From an uncultured Acidobacteriota bacterium (GTDB taxonomy: Bacteria > Acidobacteriota > Thermoanaerobaculia > Multivoradales > JAHEKO01), in the NCBI GenBank assembly GCA_963713825.1, contig CAVQNG010000003.1, positions 1,024,001 through 1,088,000 on the forward strand: DNA of 64,000 nt, in the 5' to 3' direction. Shown here one piece after another: positions 7,100-35,125 of this stretch (positions are counted from its first letter, which is position 1; each line of letters starts with the position of its first letter). The notes beneath the pieces are model-generated. The model made no database searches. It had not been told where the DNA came from and saw nothing but the letters and a program-made list of their open reading frames with translations. Made by a program: the position numbers and the translations under genes.

Positions 7100-8339
7100 G
7101 AAGAGGTGCCACCCGAATCTGAAAGATGTTGGGGGTTTACAGCGTCCTATGATTTATGTCTAGGAGATTACGGTTCATCCCAGAAGGCGGTGCCCTGGTT
7201 GAGGTGACGTGCCGGACCATTCAGGGGCGTTTTCTGCTGAAGCCGTCCGAGGAGCTGCGGTCCATCGTCATCGGGGTCCTGGCACGGGCGCAGAGGCTCT
7301 TCCCGATTGAGCTCCATGCCTTTGTCTTTCTCTCGAATCACTATCACCTTCTCTTGAGTGCGCAGAACGCCCATCAGCTAGCGCGATTCATGAATTACCT
7401 CAACTCGAATCTGGCGCGAGAAGCAGGCCGAGTACATGGCTGGAGAGAGAAGTTCTGGAGTCGCAGATACCAGGCGATCGTTGTCAGTGAAGAAGAGGCC
7501 GCTCAGACAGGTCGCCTGCGGTATCTGTTGTCCCATGGGTGTAAAGAGGGTCTCGTGTCTCGGCCACGAGAGTGGCCTGGAGCCCATTGCGCAGAGGCGC
7601 TGGTCGAAGGCCGGTTGCTCGAGGGTTTGTGGTTTGACCGCAGCCAGGAGTACGCGGCGCGAACCCGACGAGAAGAGATTGACCGCCTCGCGTACGCAAC
7701 GGCTGAAACGATACGGCTCGAACCCTTGCCCTGCTGGCAACATCTCTCGGAGGAGATGTACCGATGCCGGGTCGGTGAGCTAATCCTGCAGATCGAGGCA
7801 GAAACCGCCGAACTCCATGCCAAGGAGGGAACCCAGCCTCTGGGAGTCGGTGCCGTCTTGGCCCAGAATCCCCACGACAGGCCCCTGAGGTCGAAGAAGG
7901 CCTGGGCGCCGGCATTTCATGCGGCTACAAAGGTAGCCCGCAGAGAACTGGTCGAGGCCTATGGCTGGTTTCTGGGTGCCTATCGCGAGGCTGCGGAGAA
8001 GCTATGCTGCGGCGACCTCGGAGCGAGTTTTCCCGAGGGATGCTTTCCTCCACGACTTCCCTTTGTCGGATGGGTCCCTGACTTGGCGCCTGGCTAGCGA
8101 TAGGTCGGCATCTCATCGGAACGTTTGGCAGATCAGAGAGCACGAGGCAGTTCGTGGCAAGAGGCTTCATGTGTAGACCGCCCCCGGTCGACGCACTCAC
8201 TGTCCCCTTTGGAGACTCAGCTCCGTCGATTCCCCTCTATTGCCGCTTCGAATCGATGACCACGGAGTCCGACAGTGGATGAATCGTGGCCTTATACCGG
8301 TCAAGGTTGCCAACGTCCAGATTCGGCTGGCACTTCTTC
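7100..8339. mobile_element. RAYT locus bounded by 21-bp inverted repeats
   Basis: 7100-7120 GAAGAGGTGCCACCCGAATCT vs reverse complement of 8319-8339 GAAGAAGTGCCAGCCGAATCT (19/21). Confidence 0.7.
7156..8097 (+). CDS. REP-associated tyrosine transposase (Y1 HUH, RAYT-like) with C-terminal extension
   Basis: VTCRT, SNHYHLL (HUH), FWSRRY, catalytic Tyr in LRYLLSH, EGLV..PREWP. Confidence 0.85.
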   Translation: MSRRLRFIPEGGALVEVTCRTIQGRFLLKPSEELRSIVIGVLARAQRLFPIELHAFVFLSNHYHLLLSAQNAHQLARFMNYLNSNLAREAGRVHGWREKFWSRRYQAIVVSEEEAAQTGRLRYLLSHGCKEGLVSRPREWPGAHCAEALVEGRLLEGLWFDRSQEYAARTRREEIDRLAYATAETIRLEPLPCWQHLSEEMYRCRVGELILQIEAETAELHAKEGTQPLGVGAVLAQNPHDRPLRSKKAWAPAFHAATKVARRELVEAYGWFLGAYREAAEKLCCGDLGASFPEGCFPPRLPFVGWVPDLAPG

Positions 8340-14766: not shown

Positions 14767-15401
14767 TGTTGACAGAAAGAGGGAGTGCCTGGGGGGACAT
14801 CGTGGCGATGACCGCCGTGCTCCTGTCCTACATGTGGCTCTGGCAGCGGACCTTTGCTGGAGAGTTGTTCGTTTGCATAGCTCTGGTGGTAGGGCTGGCA
14901 GTTTGGAGCCATTGGCGCCGGGGCGAGACTCCACGCGACCTTGGGTTTAGGACCGACAATCTGGCTCCAGCCGCGATCAAGGTCTTTTCCTTTGTCGGTC
15001 CCTTGATTGTCTTCATCCTGATCGGTGGTGTTGCGCTGGGCACCTTTCGCGTCCCGGCCCGGGACGAGTTCTTGGCCAGACTGATTGTCTTGCCGCTGTT
15101 TGGCCTGGGACAGCAATACCTGCTGCTTGGTTTCTATCTGCGCCGATACGAGGAGGCGCTACCTGGAGAGCGACTGCCGATCTTGGCAACGGCCCTGACC
15201 TTCTCCCTTCTACACCTGCCGAACAGCTTTTTGGTCGGCGCGACCTTTCTGATTGGACTCGGTTCGTGTTGGCTCTACGGCCGGGCCAGGAATCTCTGGG
15301 TCCTGGGCCTTGCCCATGGCCTGCTGTCCCTGGCCTTTTCGGTCTCGATCTCCAAGAGCCTCGCCTCCGGAATGAAGGTTGGGTCGAGAGCGCTGAAGTG
15401 A
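14763..15401 (+). CDS. CPBP (CAAX/Abi-type) intramembrane protease-like protein, EE->QQ variant
   Basis: Multi-TM, DLGFR, GQQYLLLGF in place of EExxxR, FSLLH, AHGLL; ATGA overlap with upstream gene. Confidence 0.8.
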   Translation: MMLTERGSAWGDIVAMTAVLLSYMWLWQRTFAGELFVCIALVVGLAVWSHWRRGETPRDLGFRTDNLAPAAIKVFSFVGPLIVFILIGGVALGTFRVPARDEFLARLIVLPLFGLGQQYLLLGFYLRRYEEALPGERLPILATALTFSLLHLPNSFLVGATFLIGLGSCWLYGRARNLWVLGLAHGLLSLAFSVSISKSLASGMKVGSRALK

Positions 15402-15450
15402 GGCAGTGAAGCAGTGAGGCACTGAGGCAGTGAGGCAGTGAGGCAGTGAG
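15398..15450 (+). repeat. Octamer tandem array (GTGAGGCA) x6.5
   Basis: gtgaggca gtgaagca gtgaggca ctgaggca gtgaggca gtgaggca gtgag; first unit contains the TGA stop. Confidence 0.95.
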
Positions 15451-15456
15451 AGGGAA

Positions 15457-15488
15457 TAAGGGCGTAAGGGCTTAGGGGCGTAGGGGAT
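15457..15488 (+). repeat. Octamer tandem array TA(A/G)GGGC(G/T) x4
   Basis: taagggcg taagggct taggggcg taggggat. Confidence 0.9.
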
Positions 15489-15502
15489 AGAAAGCCCGTG
15501 GG

Positions 15503-15529
15503 TGAAGCGGCCGGTGCCCCTGCCGGCCG
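15503..15529 (+). repeat. REP-like family 2 hairpin
   Basis: TGAAGCGGCCGG-tgcccctg-CCGGCCG, 26/27 identical to 52690-52716. Confidence 0.85.
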
Positions 15530-15550
15530 TTTGTCCGTCTAACTGAGAAG

Positions 15551-15730
15551 TCGTCGCGTGGAGGTCCGTCCGCGTGGTCCGCAAGGGGACGGCGTCGTCC
15601 ACTCAGACTTTGATGAATGAGCCGCCACCTGCGCTCTCCGGCGCGCCGGATCTGTCGTGCACTTCGACGACTCTTGCGCTGCGCTTGTCGAGAGCCCCCC
15701 TGCGGACCACCCGAACGAACCTCTGGCACC
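15551..15730 (-). ncRNA. Putative structured RNA/ssDNA element, copy A
   Basis: Reverse complement aligns end to end with 34371-34546, with a long terminal stem and covarying inner stems. Confidence 0.65.
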
Positions 15731-16138
15731 ATTAGAGGCTAACGACCGCCAGGGCCGCCCCCACGATGAGTTCCTGGCGGGCTCAGATCGAGCAAGGGGT
15801 CTCCTTCGTCGGAGGGGCATGGTTGGGCAGGTCGCTGGTGCTTTCAGGCGGCTCGACATTGCTGGCGCCCACCGAAGACGGACCGGCGGTCATCAAGAGT
15901 AGCGTCAGGACCCAGAGTGTTGGGCGCACTGTCGCGATGCTACTCACCCCCTGTAGCTCGATCAACGAGAGGCTTGGCGCCCGGGGCAATGATCTTGGCG
16001 CCCGTAGCTATCTCTATCTTCGGTGATCTTCGCGAAACTGGAGTCAGTGGAGCTCGCTCTTTTCCCGGAACCTTGACCCTCGGCACGAGGCTAGGCCGGG
16101 GTGTTCCTTGTGGAGAGAGCGATCGAGGAGGTCTAGTA

Positions 16139-16735
16139 ATGGCGAATCAATGGTCCAAGAAAGCCAGTGGGAGCGAGGATTCGACAGCGCCACTTGGCGA
16201 CTCGGGCGAAAGCAACGAGCAAGCTCAATCCCGGTCAAGCGATCCAGTCGTTGTTGGTCTGTGCAGGGGGATGGTTGGTCTCAGCCTTGCTCTGCTCGTT
16301 GGTCTCATGACTTTGGCCTGGGTCCTGTTGCGCAGTGACATCGATTGGGACGCGTCGGTGGTCAAGGCGAGCCGTCGCGAGGCTCTTGTGGAAGCCTCCG
16401 ATGAGCCATCCAACGGTGAGGCGGCGACTGCGACAGCAGGCGTGATTCGGTTCGATTCGAGCCGATTGAATAGTGAGGGCCTGGTGGGCCCTCCTGACGG
16501 ACTGCGTGCGTTGAGCTACGAGTTCTGCATTCCGGCTGTCGAATCCCATGTCAGTGAGGTCGAGTCGATCGATTCGACGATTACGATTCAGCGCAGCTCG
16601 CCAGGCAGGATCGGCTGCGGGTCGGATGAGTATCTGGCGATCGGTAGCACCCACCAACCCGGGTTCCGGGAGGTTCTGGATCGACTCAGTCGCCTTCCCT
16701 ATGTGAACGAGATCCAAGAAGCCCATTTCGAGTAG
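16139..16735 (+). CDS. Membrane-anchored conserved hypothetical protein
   Basis: GAGGAGG SD before ATG 16139; one TM; compact C-terminal domain (GPPDGLRALSYEFCIP...SPGRIGC...GSTHQ). Confidence 0.7.
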   Translation: MANQWSKKASGSEDSTAPLGDSGESNEQAQSRSSDPVVVGLCRGMVGLSLALLVGLMTLAWVLLRSDIDWDASVVKASRREALVEASDEPSNGEAATATAGVIRFDSSRLNSEGLVGPPDGLRALSYEFCIPAVESHVSEVESIDSTITIQRSSPGRIGCGSDEYLAIGSTHQPGFREVLDRLSRLPYVNEIQEAHFE

Positions 16736-31857: not shown

Positions 31858-34180
31858 GTTCCCCACCCTAGCAGCCCTACTGTTGGCCGGATTGGTGCTC
31901 CTGCCGAGTTGTGGGTCTCGAGAGGAGGGATCGATTCCTGAGGAGGCCGGCAGCACTCCCGAGGCCACCTACGTCGGCAGGGAGGCGTGCTCGAGTTGTC
32001 ACTCCACGGAAAACCGGCTCTGGGAAGGCTCGCATCACGACCTGGCCATGCAGGTGGCCGACAAGTTCACGGTCCTCGGCGATTTCGACGACGCCACCTT
32101 CACCTACAACGACATCACCTCTACCTTCTTCCAACGAGACGGGAAGTTCTTCATCCGAACCGACGGTCCCGATGGCAATCTCGAAGACTACGAGATCGCC
32201 TACACCTTCGGGGCGGTGCCGCTGCAGCAGTACCTGATCGAGTTTCCGGATGGCCGCTATCAGGTATCGAGTCTCTGCTGGGACACGCGGCCGGCCGAGG
32301 AGGGCGGACAGCGGTGGTTTCACCTCTATCCGGATGCGGCCATCGACCATGAAGACGAGTTGCACTGGACAGGGCCGAATCAGAACTGGAACTTCATGTG
32401 TGCGGAGTGCCACTCGACCGATTTGAAGAAACGTTTCCTCGCCAACGAGAAGCGCTTCGATACCACCTATTCGGAGATCAACGTCTCTTGTGAGGCCTGT
32501 CACGGGCCGGGTTCACTGCATGTGGAATGGGCCGACGCGGTCGCTTTGCGCAGGAAGCCTCCCTACGACAACGGGCATATGGGTCTGGTAGTGCGGCTCG
32601 AAGATCCGGGCAGAGGTACCTGGATCGTGAGTCCCGAAACGGGAAGTGGCACGCGGATGGCACCCACGGTCGAGACCTGGGAGATGGAGACGTGCGCGCG
32701 CTGCCACTCGCGGCGCGGCCTGATTTGGGAACAGTACGAGTTCGGGAAGCCGCTTCTCGATACCCATCGCCTGGCGGTGCTGGAGGAGGGGCTCTACCAC
32801 GCCGACGGCCAGATCGAGGAGGAGGTCTACGTTCATGGCTCCTTTCTGCAGAGCAAGATGTTCCAGAAGGGCGTGACCTGCAGCGATTGCCATGATCCGC
32901 ACAGCCTCGAGATGCACTTCCCCGGCGACTCGGTCTGTGTGCGCTGCCACTCGCGGACGAAATTTGCCACCCAGGAGCATCACTTCCACAAGCCCGAAAC
33001 CAAGGGTGCCTTCTGCGTCGACTGTCATATGCCGCCCAAGAACTACATGGTGGTGGATCCGCGCCACGATCACAGCCTGCGGATCCCCCGGCCGGATCTG
33101 TCCTTGAAGATTGGCACTCCGAACGCTTGCAACGACTGCCACGCGGACAAGTCGGTACAGTGGTCGATGGATTGGATCGTCAAGTGGTACGGCCCAGAAC
33201 GTCGGCAGGAGGCCCACTATGGCGAGGCCCTGCACGCGGCGCGAGTGGGCATGCCTGGTGCGGAGCAGGCGCTGACGGCGTTGATTGAGAACGAGGAGGC
33301 ACCGGCGATCGCCCGAGCCACGGCGCTGACGCTGCTGCCGAGGTATCTCACGATCGGCAGCCTGCCGGTTGTCGAACGAGCGCTCGGCAGTCGGGATCCA
33401 CTGCTGAGGATGGCGGCTGTCGGTGCAACCGAAGCCGTGGAGGCCTCCTCCAGGCTATCCCTGGCCTATCCGCTGCTGCATGACCCGGTCCGCGCTGTGC
33501 GCTTCGAGGCGGCGAATCGCCTCGCCTCCGTGCCGCGGGAGCTCTTCTCCTCCCCTCAGGAGACCGCGCTCCAGAACACCCTGGCCGAATATCGGGAGTC
33601 GCTCCGCGTCAACGCGGATCGCGCCGAATCTCATCTGAGCCAGGCCTGGTTGCACTCGATGAGCGGTGAGCTCGAAGAAGCGGAAGAGGCTTACCTCGAG
33701 GCAATCGAGCTGAATCCGTTTCTCCCGACCACCTACATCAACATCGCGGATCTTTACAGGATGCAGGGTCGCGATGCAGAGGGCGAGAGGATGCTCCGCA
33801 GGGCCGTAGAGCTCTACCCTGAAAGTGGCGACATCCGGCACGCCCTGGGCCTGAGCCTCATCCGACTTCAGCGTCCCGTCGAAGCGCTCAGCGAGCTGAG
33901 GTTGGCCGCCGAAGCGATGCCCGAATCGGCCCGCTACTCCTATGTCTACGGAGTCGCACTGCTCGACTCGGGCGAGCCTCAGCAGGGTTTGAAGGTGCTG
34001 GAGGAAGCGCACCGAAGGCACCCGACCGACCGAGAGATCCTCGTGGGCCTGGTGTCGATCTACCGCTCGAACGGCGATTTGGGCACCGCCCTGGACTACG
34101 CCCGCAAGCTCCAGGCCCTGGTACCGCAAGACCCCAACGTCCAGCGCATGGTCCAGGATCTCGAGACCTCGGGATCGTAA
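31838..34180 (+). CDS. Octaheme c-type cytochrome lipoprotein with HEAT and TPR repeats
   Basis: Eight CxxCH motifs (CSSCH, CAECH, CEACH, CARCH, CSDCH, CVRCH, CVDCH, CNDCH), lipobox LPSC, C-terminal TPRs; GTG start inferred. Confidence 0.9.
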   Translation: MSDAAAEFPTLAALLLAGLVLLPSCGSREEGSIPEEAGSTPEATYVGREACSSCHSTENRLWEGSHHDLAMQVADKFTVLGDFDDATFTYNDITSTFFQRDGKFFIRTDGPDGNLEDYEIAYTFGAVPLQQYLIEFPDGRYQVSSLCWDTRPAEEGGQRWFHLYPDAAIDHEDELHWTGPNQNWNFMCAECHSTDLKKRFLANEKRFDTTYSEINVSCEACHGPGSLHVEWADAVALRRKPPYDNGHMGLVVRLEDPGRGTWIVSPETGSGTRMAPTVETWEMETCARCHSRRGLIWEQYEFGKPLLDTHRLAVLEEGLYHADGQIEEEVYVHGSFLQSKMFQKGVTCSDCHDPHSLEMHFPGDSVCVRCHSRTKFATQEHHFHKPETKGAFCVDCHMPPKNYMVVDPRHDHSLRIPRPDLSLKIGTPNACNDCHADKSVQWSMDWIVKWYGPERRQEAHYGEALHAARVGMPGAEQALTALIENEEAPAIARATALTLLPRYLTIGSLPVVERALGSRDPLLRMAAVGATEAVEASSRLSLAYPLLHDPVRAVRFEAANRLASVPRELFSSPQETALQNTLAEYRESLRVNADRAESHLSQAWLHSMSGELEEAEEAYLEAIELNPFLPTTYINIADLYRMQGRDAEGERMLRRAVELYPESGDIRHALGLSLIRLQRPVEALSELRLAAEAMPESARYSYVYGVALLDSGEPQQGLKVLEEAHRRHPTDREILVGLVSIYRSNGDLGTALDYARKLQALVPQDPNVQRMVQDLETSGS

Positions 34181-34214: not shown

Positions 34215-34293
34215 GGGGGTCCGACGCGGGGCCCCCAGGGGGCTATCCTCCCTTCCGCTGCAAGAACCCCCTGGAGGTCCCCACGCCGAACCC
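34215..34293. repeat. Long imperfect inverted repeat between convergent genes
   Basis: GGGTCCGACGCGGGGCCCCCAGGGGG ... CCCCCTGGAGGTCCCCACGCCGAACCC. Confidence 0.6.
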
Positions 34294-34328
34294 TTGGAGC
34301 CGCTGTAGGTCCCCTGCAGAGCTGTTTA

Positions 34329-34358
34329 CCCCTACGCCCCTAAGCCTCTAAGCCCTTA
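34329..34358 (-). repeat. Octamer array (CCCCTA(C/A)G on +) x~4
   Basis: cccctacg cccctaag cctctaag ccctta. Confidence 0.85.
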
Positions 34359-34370
34359 CTACCTCCACCG

Positions 34371-34546
34371 GTGCTAGAGGTTCGTTCGGCTGGTTCGTCA
34401 GGGGGTGCCACGTCGAGCGCAGCGCAAGGTCCATTGAAGAGCACAATAGATCCGGCGCGATGACGTGACAAGGTGGCGGCCCACCCATCGCAGTCTGAGT
34501 AGCCGACGCCGTCCCCCAGGCGAGCCAGCCGGACGGGCCTCTACAC
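34371..34546 (+). ncRNA. Putative structured RNA/ssDNA element, copy B
   Basis: Homologous to reverse complement of 15551-15730; ~25-bp terminal stem with several G-U pairs. Confidence 0.65.
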
Positions 34547-34597
34547 GACAACCGCTGCAGGAGGTGATTCGATGGGTCGGCAGGGACGCCGGCTGCC

Positions 34598-35125
34598 TCA
34601 ACCCTTCGCGGAGCGAACGATGTCGCGCAAGATTTTCTGGTGGTGATGGTGGTGGACGACGGTGAAGCGGAGCCACTGAGAAGCATCGAGGCGCCCGAAG
34701 ACGGGATGGGGCACAGTGGCGATCGAGGTGGTGAGTTGCCCAGCCGAGGTCTGAAGCTCGACGAACCCCTGGCGCACAGCCACCAGCTTGTCGTGAACGT
34801 CCTCACTTGGGATTTCTTGCGGCACCACCCCTTTCGGTGCCTTGCCTCGTCCTCGGGGTATGTAGCCGGCCCACAAGCAAATACGCCCGACCAGGGTGGG
34901 TTTCCCCGGCTTGCCACCCTCGGGATTGGCCAGCAGCTTCGAAAGCCCGTCCAGGGTGAACTCGTCACTCAAGGTCAGGTGCTCCACGTGCTTGCCGACG
35001 CTCCAACTGGAGACGGATTCCGATTGCCGCGACATCTCCTCTGGACGACCGGCCAGGTCGATCAGGTCATCCAGGCTGGCGACGATCTCCTGCAGGCTCT
35101 TCTTGGTGCCGGTTGTCTTCGACAT
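34598..35125 (-). CDS. DinB-family protein
   Basis: WSVGKHVEHL, HPVFG, F...HHHHHQK. Confidence 0.85.
   Translation of the reverse strand: MSKTTGTKKSLQEIVASLDDLIDLAGRPEEMSRQSESVSSWSVGKHVEHLTLSDEFTLDGLSKLLANPEGGKPGKPTLVGRICLWAGYIPRGRGKAPKGVVPQEIPSEDVHDKLVAVRQGFVELQTSAGQLTTSIATVPHPVFGRLDASQWLRFTVVHHHHHQKILRDIVRSAKG

Follow-up and report, generated by a model that had tools for sequence, protein, structure and literature searches.

A fold-defined family of 177-nt intergenic repeats almost confined to one order of Acidobacteriota

Introduction

What sort of element is a stretch of non-coding DNA, 177 nt long, whose copies share a fold on one strand more than they share a sequence? The question is raised by two loci in a window of 64,000 nucleotides (the whole stretch of DNA analysed here) from an uncultured bacterium of the Acidobacteriota. 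A sequence-only reading had noticed a structured element there, had taken it to be present twice, and had proposed either a novel non-coding RNA or a non-autonomous mobile element acting as single-stranded DNA or RNA. The small repeats of bacteria, REP, Correia and ERIC among them, tend to be short-lived or to be defined by their sequence. Here we describe a 177-nt junction fold that is kept by compensatory change across a mostly uncultured order of sediment bacteria, while its copy number swings. It offers a manageable system in which to ask whether repeats recognised by their fold survive as selfish DNA or because they serve the host as RNA.

Two copies in the window

The two copies lie where they had been placed, on opposite strands, and can indeed be aligned end to end, at a mean column identity of 77% over a 353-column alignment that includes their flanks. 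All five sequence blocks thought to be common to them are found in both. The cores and the features around them are as follows.

15556..15731, minus strand: copy A, 177-nt core, 156.4 bits with model R1
34369..34546, plus strand: copy B, 177-nt core, 197.7 bits
14763-15401, plus strand: Rce1-like ORF on one side of copy A
15917-16735, plus strand: conserved ORF on the other side of copy A, 92% identical in two sister species
15395..15490, minus strand: two 8-mer arrays, of CCCCTA type and CACTGCCT type, downstream of copy A in its orientation, an atypical arrangement
15500..15530, minus strand: G+C-rich hairpin cassette downstream of copy A, a reversed form of a terminator-like cassette found genome-wide
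15790..15830, minus strand: fragment of the module that we call U, upstream of copy A
34217..34294, plus strand: module R2, a repeat of about 80 nt that precedes the array and copy B and is 95-99% identical to sister-species copies
34329..34362, plus strand: 8-mer array of CCCCTA-type units directly upstream of copy B, the usual arrangement in the genome
about 34575-34610: counterpart of the hairpin cassette at copy B

Both ORFs that flank copy A are on the plus strand and the copy itself is on the minus strand, so that it is, as had been observed, antisense to both neighbours. Copy B sits between convergent genes, a TPR/cytochrome c gene that ends at 34180 and a minus-strand gene that ends at 34598. 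The sequence-only reading had also remarked that both copies lie near TAGGGG arrays, and 8-mer arrays of TAGGGG/CCCCTA type are found beside each. The surroundings of the two copies differ in their layout: at copy B the order is R2, array, core, whereas copy A has a U fragment alone upstream and its arrays on the wrong side. Copy A is among the most divergent members of its family and belongs to a four-copy subfamily with a distinct P3 helix sequence (the helices are described below).

The element had not been recognised as a known class of RNA, and no Rfam family matches it. At the gathering score, Rfam 15 returned nothing in the whole 64-kb window; in E-value mode, the two copies gave chance-level matches only (E 2.7-5.2), with scores far below gathering. 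Nor did we find a published description of the core family in the open literature, subscription journals being outside the scope of that search.

A dispersed family of old copies

The notion that the element is present twice did not survive a search of the genome itself. A nucleotide profile of the 177-nt core returned 96 hits in the 5.42 Mb of the assembly, 81 of them near full length and the whole set spread over 9 of the 38 contigs. BLAST with copy A as the query gave at least 48 matches in the same genome (the best 40 of 113 candidates scored). This copy number is far beyond chance, and both window copies are members of a lineage-restricted family of 177-nt non-coding intergenic repeats.

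Among 66 aligned copies, pairwise identity has a median of 82.5% (5th to 95th percentile, 73-89%). Only 4 of the 2145 pairs exceed 95% identity; there has thus been no recent burst. The copies are old.

Some contigs carry neither the core nor an array of CCCCTA type, namely C1 (414 kb), C34 (156 kb), C2, C10, C11 and other contigs of low G+C content. At the genome-wide density about six cores would be expected on C1 alone, and these contigs may be a replicon of their own, DNA that was acquired recently or contigs binned in error.

A fold maintained on one strand

We curated a structure from the RNAalifold consensus together with mutual information. The modelled fold has 46 base pairs in five helices with one branch point, and the overall shape of a Y, in which a long terminal stem leads to a three-way junction and two arms. 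The terminal stem, P1, is about 21 bp long, carries G-U pairs at fixed positions and is paired in 97.1% of alignment cells. A 5-bp G/C helix, P2, reaches the three-way junction. P3 is a helix of nine positions whose majority form contains a tandem G.A pair, with Watson-Crick pairs instead in about 20 copies; its first pair is the top covarying pair within the genome (CG in 39 copies, UA in 22, GC in 4). Through a second tandem G.A, P3 is joined to P4, a GCGC/GCGC helix that encloses a variable loop of about 38 nt, and the 8-bp helix P6 is capped by a conserved loop of 21 nt.

The terminal and inner stems that had been paired by eye in the two copies, with their compensatory differences, are real: they are the helices P1 and P3 of the family structure. 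A third proposed hairpin, GTCGT/ACGAC in one copy and ATTG/CAAT in the other, pairs in both copies but belongs to the region that varies most within the family, and no consistent pairing was found there across copies.

Across genera the fold is strongly supported. We aligned 41 sequences from about 10 genera by fitting them to the covariance model, an alignment that leans towards structure, and compared it with shuffled and slid controls. In this alignment 94.3% of cells are paired, as against 68.2% in shuffles; changes on both sides of a pair occur in 40 of the 46 pairs (shuffle mean 28.6); and the covariation score is 0.596, compared with 0.151 in shuffles and at most 0.111 in slid controls. 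Covariation, which the earlier reading had proposed to check with more copies aligned, therefore becomes very strong. In other genera the sequence of P1 is entirely different and its pairing is kept. The bases that stay fixed across genera are those at the end of P3 and in P4, the purines of the junction and the strand that joins P6 to P2. Within the source genome the copies are too alike for the fold test to be more than weak, with 94.8% of cells paired versus 93.3% in shuffles and 11 double-change pairs against a shuffle mean of 4.5. Slid controls within the genome have only 38-54% of their cells paired.

The fold also belongs to one strand. The covariance model scores about 200 bits on the strand assigned to the element and about 40 on the opposite strand. 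G.U cells outnumber A.C cells by 343 to 23 in 66 copies, an excess of 15:1, and by 60 to 12 in 31 rows from other genera. The claim that G-U pairs favour the strands given for the two copies, and that the element is directional, is thereby upheld. Taken together, the G.U excess and the model scores imply that selection acts on the fold of a single strand of nucleic acid, be it RNA or single-stranded DNA.

What might such selection act on? One candidate is a multi-copy functional structured RNA, which would be transcribed and would have reached its copy number through duplication because it is useful. The fixed G-U positions, the excess of G.U over A.C, and the conservation across genera of non-Watson-Crick motifs and loop sequences all speak for an RNA of this kind, and we return to it below. 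If, on the other hand, the core were an ordinary MITE with terminal inverted repeats, derived from a DDE insertion sequence, its fold would be a by-product of its inverted ends. The core does have inverted terminal arms, and in 4 of 74 aligned distinct copies the inverted repeat reaches the outermost GGTGCC bases; the larger composites described below are likewise bounded by inverted arms. However, we would not expect a by-product to have an interior junction and loops that are conserved and covary across genera, nor would we expect strong strand asymmetry of an element that is cut and pasted as a double strand. An autonomous parent insertion sequence with the same ends as the core was not found in the genome either, and no target duplication was seen at the loci compared between sister species. 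We consider this explanation quite improbable.

Distribution among relatives

A first model, built from the source genome only, detected the element in all five other genomes of the genus (28-40 matches each among those scored). Within the family it was detected in 14 of 24 genomes, and in the other families of the order in none of 16. A broader model, for which the best 66 candidates per genome were scored, detected it in 23 of 41 relatives: 19 of 24 genomes in family f1, one of two in f3 and the single genomes of f10 and f11. Copy number swings widely, from 1 to 58 matches per genome among the matches scored. Note that the tallies for relatives, here and in the wider samples, include an unpublished genome, G006; none of our statements depends on that genome alone.

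Wider sampling added little outside the order. At the level of the class, 17 of 151 genomes contain the element, all of them from the same order (5 of 5 in f1, 10 of 23 in f8, 1 of 1 in f10, and 0 of 121 elsewhere), with 1-6 matches per genome, among those scored, in one family of the order. At the level of the phylum, 5 of 151 genomes contain it, and the one that lies outside the order has two weak hits. Collections of plasmids, phages and viral contigs contained nothing similar. The family is almost confined to one order of Acidobacteriota, through which it is inherited, and has expanded to about 80 copies in the source genus. In other genera the element also forms tandem and head-to-head clusters. 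DNA sequencing runs with closely related strains contain 47-71% of the window's words.

A composite unit

The features listed around copy B recur elsewhere in the genome. Of 80 cores, 33 are immediately preceded by an array of CCCCTA type that shares their orientation, and not one is preceded by an array in the opposite orientation; another 32 arrays lie far from any core. Further upstream than the array, U and R2 occur as alternatives. The genome has U at 42 places, and at 30 of these it immediately precedes a core of like orientation; R2 has 29 places, 21 of them so arranged. Between species whose genes share about 77-85% identity, R2 copies share 95-99%, which makes R2 the younger or the more constrained part of the unit.

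The reverse complement of the core's 3' arm precedes R2 in most of the 29 places listed. In addition, 12 solo arms precede a core at a distance of 113-252 nt and are inverted relative to it; the other arrangements of solo arm and core do not occur, so that the composite is bounded by inverted arms of about 25 bp. In the genus, its order is often inverted terminal arm, R2 or U module, 8-mer array and core. Terminator-like cassettes of the flanking genes lie outside the composite, forward on its upstream side and reversed on its downstream side. The arrays do not occur regularly in other genera.

Two side observations concern these modules. The end-to-end pairing of R2 places its G-T wobbles on the strand opposite to that of the core, and to judge from this R2 may itself be a structured element, oriented divergently to the core. 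The terminator-like cassettes have conserved flanks, GGGGTTGAGGCG and TCTTTGAGGGCTTGGGG, around a variable, covarying stem; they stand forward after genes and reversed after convergent genes at many loci, for example in the upstream region of L008, and hairpins of the same type occur in other genera (G016, G023).

Placement and expression

Where the copies lie relative to genes was assessed for 71 of them with crude gene calls (GC3-filtered ORFs). Thirty-six sit between convergent genes, an arrangement whose background frequency in the genome is 19.5%. Of the rest, 15 occupy spacers between tandem genes that run the same way as the copy, 6 are found between divergent genes, and 14 are antisense to the gene on either side. 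In 51 of the 71 cases the gene upstream has the direction of the copy, and copies are enriched at the 3' ends of genes. No protein gene recurs beside the partial copies of the source genome or beside the copies of other genera, where the neighbours are unrelated housekeeping genes. In two or three species of one genus, from another family of the order, ruvB is found next to a copy. In one of these species ruvB lies between two inverted copies (G082:C3:112467-113913, locus L164), and in its sister species a single copy adjoins ruvB.

A structured RNA could work in cis, at 3' ends or as an insulator, by stabilising or terminating the transcripts next to it; in trans, it could serve as a scaffold that binds protein. 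The preponderance of co-directional upstream genes and the enrichment at gene 3' ends count in favour of such an RNA. The same can be said of the C-rich, G-poor 8-mer arrays, which stand in fixed orientation directly 5' of so many cores and which, speculatively, may be Rho-utilisation sites. Yet in 20 of the 71 cases, copy A included, the core is antisense to the upstream gene, and terminator-like hairpins of the flanking genes sit between gene and element. A scan for sigma-70 promoters and terminators upstream of two copies returned no site for one copy and, for the other, a single weak site that lies inside the core and on the opposite strand.

One RNA library does contain the element. Metatranscriptome contigs of X20, from the source organism or a close strain, cover it, with a summed depth of about 100 at position 34483 compared with 0-11 in most gene bins; these contigs carry no strand or end information. 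Three other RNA runs have next to nothing on cores. Given about 80 copies, contig-only data and possible carry-over of DNA, the X20 depth is no evidence either way: the number of repeat copies, or DNA in the library, can account for it.

The swing from 1 to 58 scored matches among related genomes, in combination with the lack of a conserved neighbouring gene, also sits badly with a host-useful RNA. Persistence of individual copies fits such an RNA well: orthologous copies are kept at 79-85% identity between species in which the surrounding intergenic DNA has diverged beyond alignment. On balance, we regard a functional structured RNA as possible rather than probable, bearing in mind that an RNA role and a mobile origin are not mutually exclusive.

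Candidate enzymes

If the core moves, something ought to move it. One way to account for its size and fold would be as an orphaned guide or partner RNA, comparable to the omega RNA of TnpB/IscB, the bridge RNA of IS110 or an RNA of the retron type. At 177 nt, with a multi-helix fold and a variable interior loop, the core does resemble such RNAs. The proteins that would be their partners tell against it: in this genome, 96.36% complete, neither the TnpB zinc ribbon (PF07282) nor the reverse transcriptase domain RVT_1 (PF00078) has a match. An IS110 bridge RNA comes from the non-coding end of its element, next to the gene for the DEDD recombinase. The genome has three IS110 genes, and a search of the 15 kb around them, with the model's filters off, found no core beside them, only generic hairpins with a best E of 0.04. 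As, moreover, no protein gene recurs beside the element and no Rfam family matches it, the guide-RNA explanation is largely refuted, and we hold it to be most improbable. A weak nhmmer hit near an IS110 gene proved to be a nested REP-like hairpin and not the core.

An autonomous partner was sought beside eight partial copies, where we found only housekeeping genes and one unrelated gene of IS481 type. No flanks longer than about 300 nt are common to the copies, and no autonomous element with the termini of the core was found in the genome.

The genome does encode four RAYT-like Y1 transposases (IS200-like, Y1_Tnp), one of which lies in the window.

7156-8097, plus strand: RAYT-like Y1 gene, 313 aa, with inverted repeats at 7100-7128 and 8311-8339

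This gene scores 51.5 bits on the model for REP-associated tyrosine transposases, below the cut-off of 80. Its own 29-nt inverted repeats are 83% complementary, a 'TIRtron' arrangement that Di Nocera et al. (PMC3733652) describe for Acidobacteria. The four Y1 genes are the only candidates in the genome for a transposase that acts on single strands, and several observations argue against their handling this one. The Y1 genes carry inverted repeats of their own, 11-29 nt long and unrelated to the core, and the cores nearest to them are about 8-17 kb away by coordinates. None of the 59 sites of the genome's GTAG-tagged REP-like hairpins lies within 1.5 kb of a Y1 gene. Homologues of Y1 occur in 36 of the 41 relatives, with or without the element. 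One genome (G023) has 41 element matches among those scored and no Y1 homologue at E 1e-10, while three others (G007, G029 and G036) have 15, 24 and 14 Y1 homologues, respectively, and no element. Note that, according to the same paper, the correlation across genomes between a repeat family and its transposase is often weak (PMC3733652).

Short dispersed sites that resemble the Y1 inverted repeats, with a consensus of about AGGTGCCAGCCGATTCTG, occur at three positions just upstream of the Y1 gene in the window (about 2056, 4581 and 6035) and at about 30-40 further positions genome-wide. Separately, an octamer, GGTGCCAG, is common to the inverted repeats that flank the Y1 gene and to the 5' edge of the core. 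The remainder of the two sequences differs, the octamer has 487 occurrences in the genome and the phyletic patterns disagree; we take it to be a coincidence or at most a lead.

Single-strand transposition of the IS200/IS605 kind leaves a further trace, in that transposons of this type are biased in orientation with the direction of replication. PATEs derived from IS200/IS605 elements, along with the omega RNAs of TnpB, resemble the core in having strand-specific folded ends and no obvious target duplication. The core differs from them in showing no replication-direction bias (38 of 76 copies are on the G-rich strand, as assessed by local GC skew), in a genome where neither TnpB nor an IS200/IS605 element with the core's ends was found. 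As regards replication, the cumulative GC skew of contig C3 has its minimum at about 810 kb, which suggests an origin about 215-280 kb upstream of the window.

Turnover between sister species

It had been proposed to look for filled and empty sites. Comparing seven loci with sister species, we find that three keep a copy and four differ; that is, loci do differ between sister species, but no clean pair of a filled and an empty site was seen at the seven, and neither was a target-site duplication. The kept copies are copy B, in G002, and those at two loci on contig C5, in G004 and/or G003.

The differing loci are rearranged and not simply empty. At the locus of copy A, the flanks are 125-141 nt apart in G003 and G004, compared with 580 in the source genome, and the stretch between them consists of an array and a short stub in opposite orientation. 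At one locus on C3, both sister genomes have an array with the element's first 40 nt or so, again in opposite orientation; at another, the whole composite of R2, array and core is inverted between the same flanks in G004. At the remaining locus, the copy is missing from G004, where 1.9 kb of other DNA is found. Turnover between sister species is therefore real.

A different sign of mobility lies within the element. In nine cores at different loci, a GTAG-tagged hairpin doublet is nested at the same position of the P6 loop and in the same orientation, and this long variant is also present in sister genomes. The simplest account, judging from the sequences, would be one insertion followed by spread of the variant. 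The doublet itself belongs to a separate family of typical REP type, with 59 sites on contigs C3, C4, C5 and others of the source genome (G000) and none in the window.

These observations bring us back to the two halves of the original proposal. A non-coding RNA gene in two copies is not supported, because the element is dispersed, has about 80 copies and lacks a conserved neighbouring gene. Its directionality and its selection as a single strand hold, and the mobile alternative fits better, on account of the swings in copy number, the differences at sister sites, the shared nested insertion and the inverted arms. We think that the core is probably a non-autonomous, fold-recognised mobile repeat of the REPIN/MITE kind that acts as a single strand. 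The observations themselves comprise the strand-specific fold, the numbers of copies, their range across taxa and context in the genome, turnover among sister species and the spread of the variant with the nested hairpins; we infer transposition itself, the active form (single-stranded DNA or RNA) and an enzyme. The latter, putatively acting in trans, would recognise the folded single strand together with the conserved terminal arm and would copy the element into gene-poor 3' intergenic DNA, with the core often serving as the right-hand part of a larger unit with inverted arms (arm, R2 or U, 8-mer array, core). Against a mobile repeat of this kind, it must be said that conserved loops, fixed G-U pairs and persistent orthologues would equally fit a host-useful RNA.

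Comparison with known repeats

How does a mobile repeat with these properties relate to those already described? The closest parallel is with REP/REPIN elements. REP elements are described as short imperfect palindromes of 20-40 bp, or doublets of these (PMC3733652), that carry an end tag, GTAG or CGTC, in more than 90% of the members of most families (PMC3733652) and are associated with RAYT transposases of the Y1 HUH type (PMC3733652, PMC3116915, PMC3337134); a variant termed TIR repeat/TIRYT is described there for Acidobacteria (PMC3733652). Like REP/REPIN elements, the core is non-coding, present in high copy number and vertically persistent, and lies downstream of genes and between convergent genes. 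In both, two inverted arms form a hairpin, G-T/G-U pairs suggest that the active form is single-stranded, and copies can form head-to-head dimers and clusters; the genome also has RAYT-like genes, including one in the window. The differences are equally plain. With its 177 nt, three-way junction and conserved loops, the core is not a palindrome of 20-40 bp. Its 3' arm is followed by CTAC in 12 of 66 copies, by CCAC in 14 and by varying sets of four bases in the other 40, so that no conserved REP tag is present. Nor is there a REPtron, that is, a RAYT gene flanked by its repeat: the Y1 genes are neither flanked by the core nor co-occurring with it. The hairpin family of true REP type that the genome does possess, tagged with GTAG, is separate from the core.

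A second group of known repeats is closer in size. Correia elements (NEMIS/CREE) of Neisseria, ERIC/IRU of enterobacteria and bcr1 of the Bacillus cereus group are intergenic repeats of 100-200 nt with inverted ends; their transcripts fold, they are tolerated close to the ends of genes, and their copy number differs by lineage. Their inverted ends are conserved in sequence, and Correia elements have a TA target duplication. The core shares with them its intergenic position, inverted ends, capacity to fold as RNA, tolerance near gene ends and variable copy number. It differs in that its stems change freely from genus to genus, with the fold and a few bases of the loops preserved; at the seven loci we saw no target duplication, and its family spans an order and not a genus. 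Of the features of a TIR-type MITE, the core has the terminal inverted repeats, without an autonomous parent that shares them having been found in the genome. By the tests that define them, the core falls outside REP/REPIN elements and guide-RNA families and, to judge from the parent not found in the genome and the target duplication not seen at the seven loci, probably outside TIR-type MITEs as well.

A more unusual reading would be an undescribed self-propagating replicator of structured RNA or single-stranded DNA that would be order-wide, vertically inherited and defined by its fold, with junction and loops as the substrate of a putative enzyme of the host or of the element. We regard such a replicator as unlikely. 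In the source genus, it would have become part of a larger unit, in which two divergent structured modules with a common terminal arm flank a C-rich 8-mer array. If the arrays and the two alternative 5' modules belonged to a transcription unit, the repeats would be genes for a ribonucleoprotein RNA, about 80 of them in each genome.

Whichever of these applies, the known candidates for a single-strand transposase do not explain the family, which points to a putative enzyme or RNA-binding partner. The repeats also matter in practice: several contigs of the sister genomes end inside copies, and the covariance model allows such repeats to be annotated and masked in metagenome-assembled genomes, where they break contigs.
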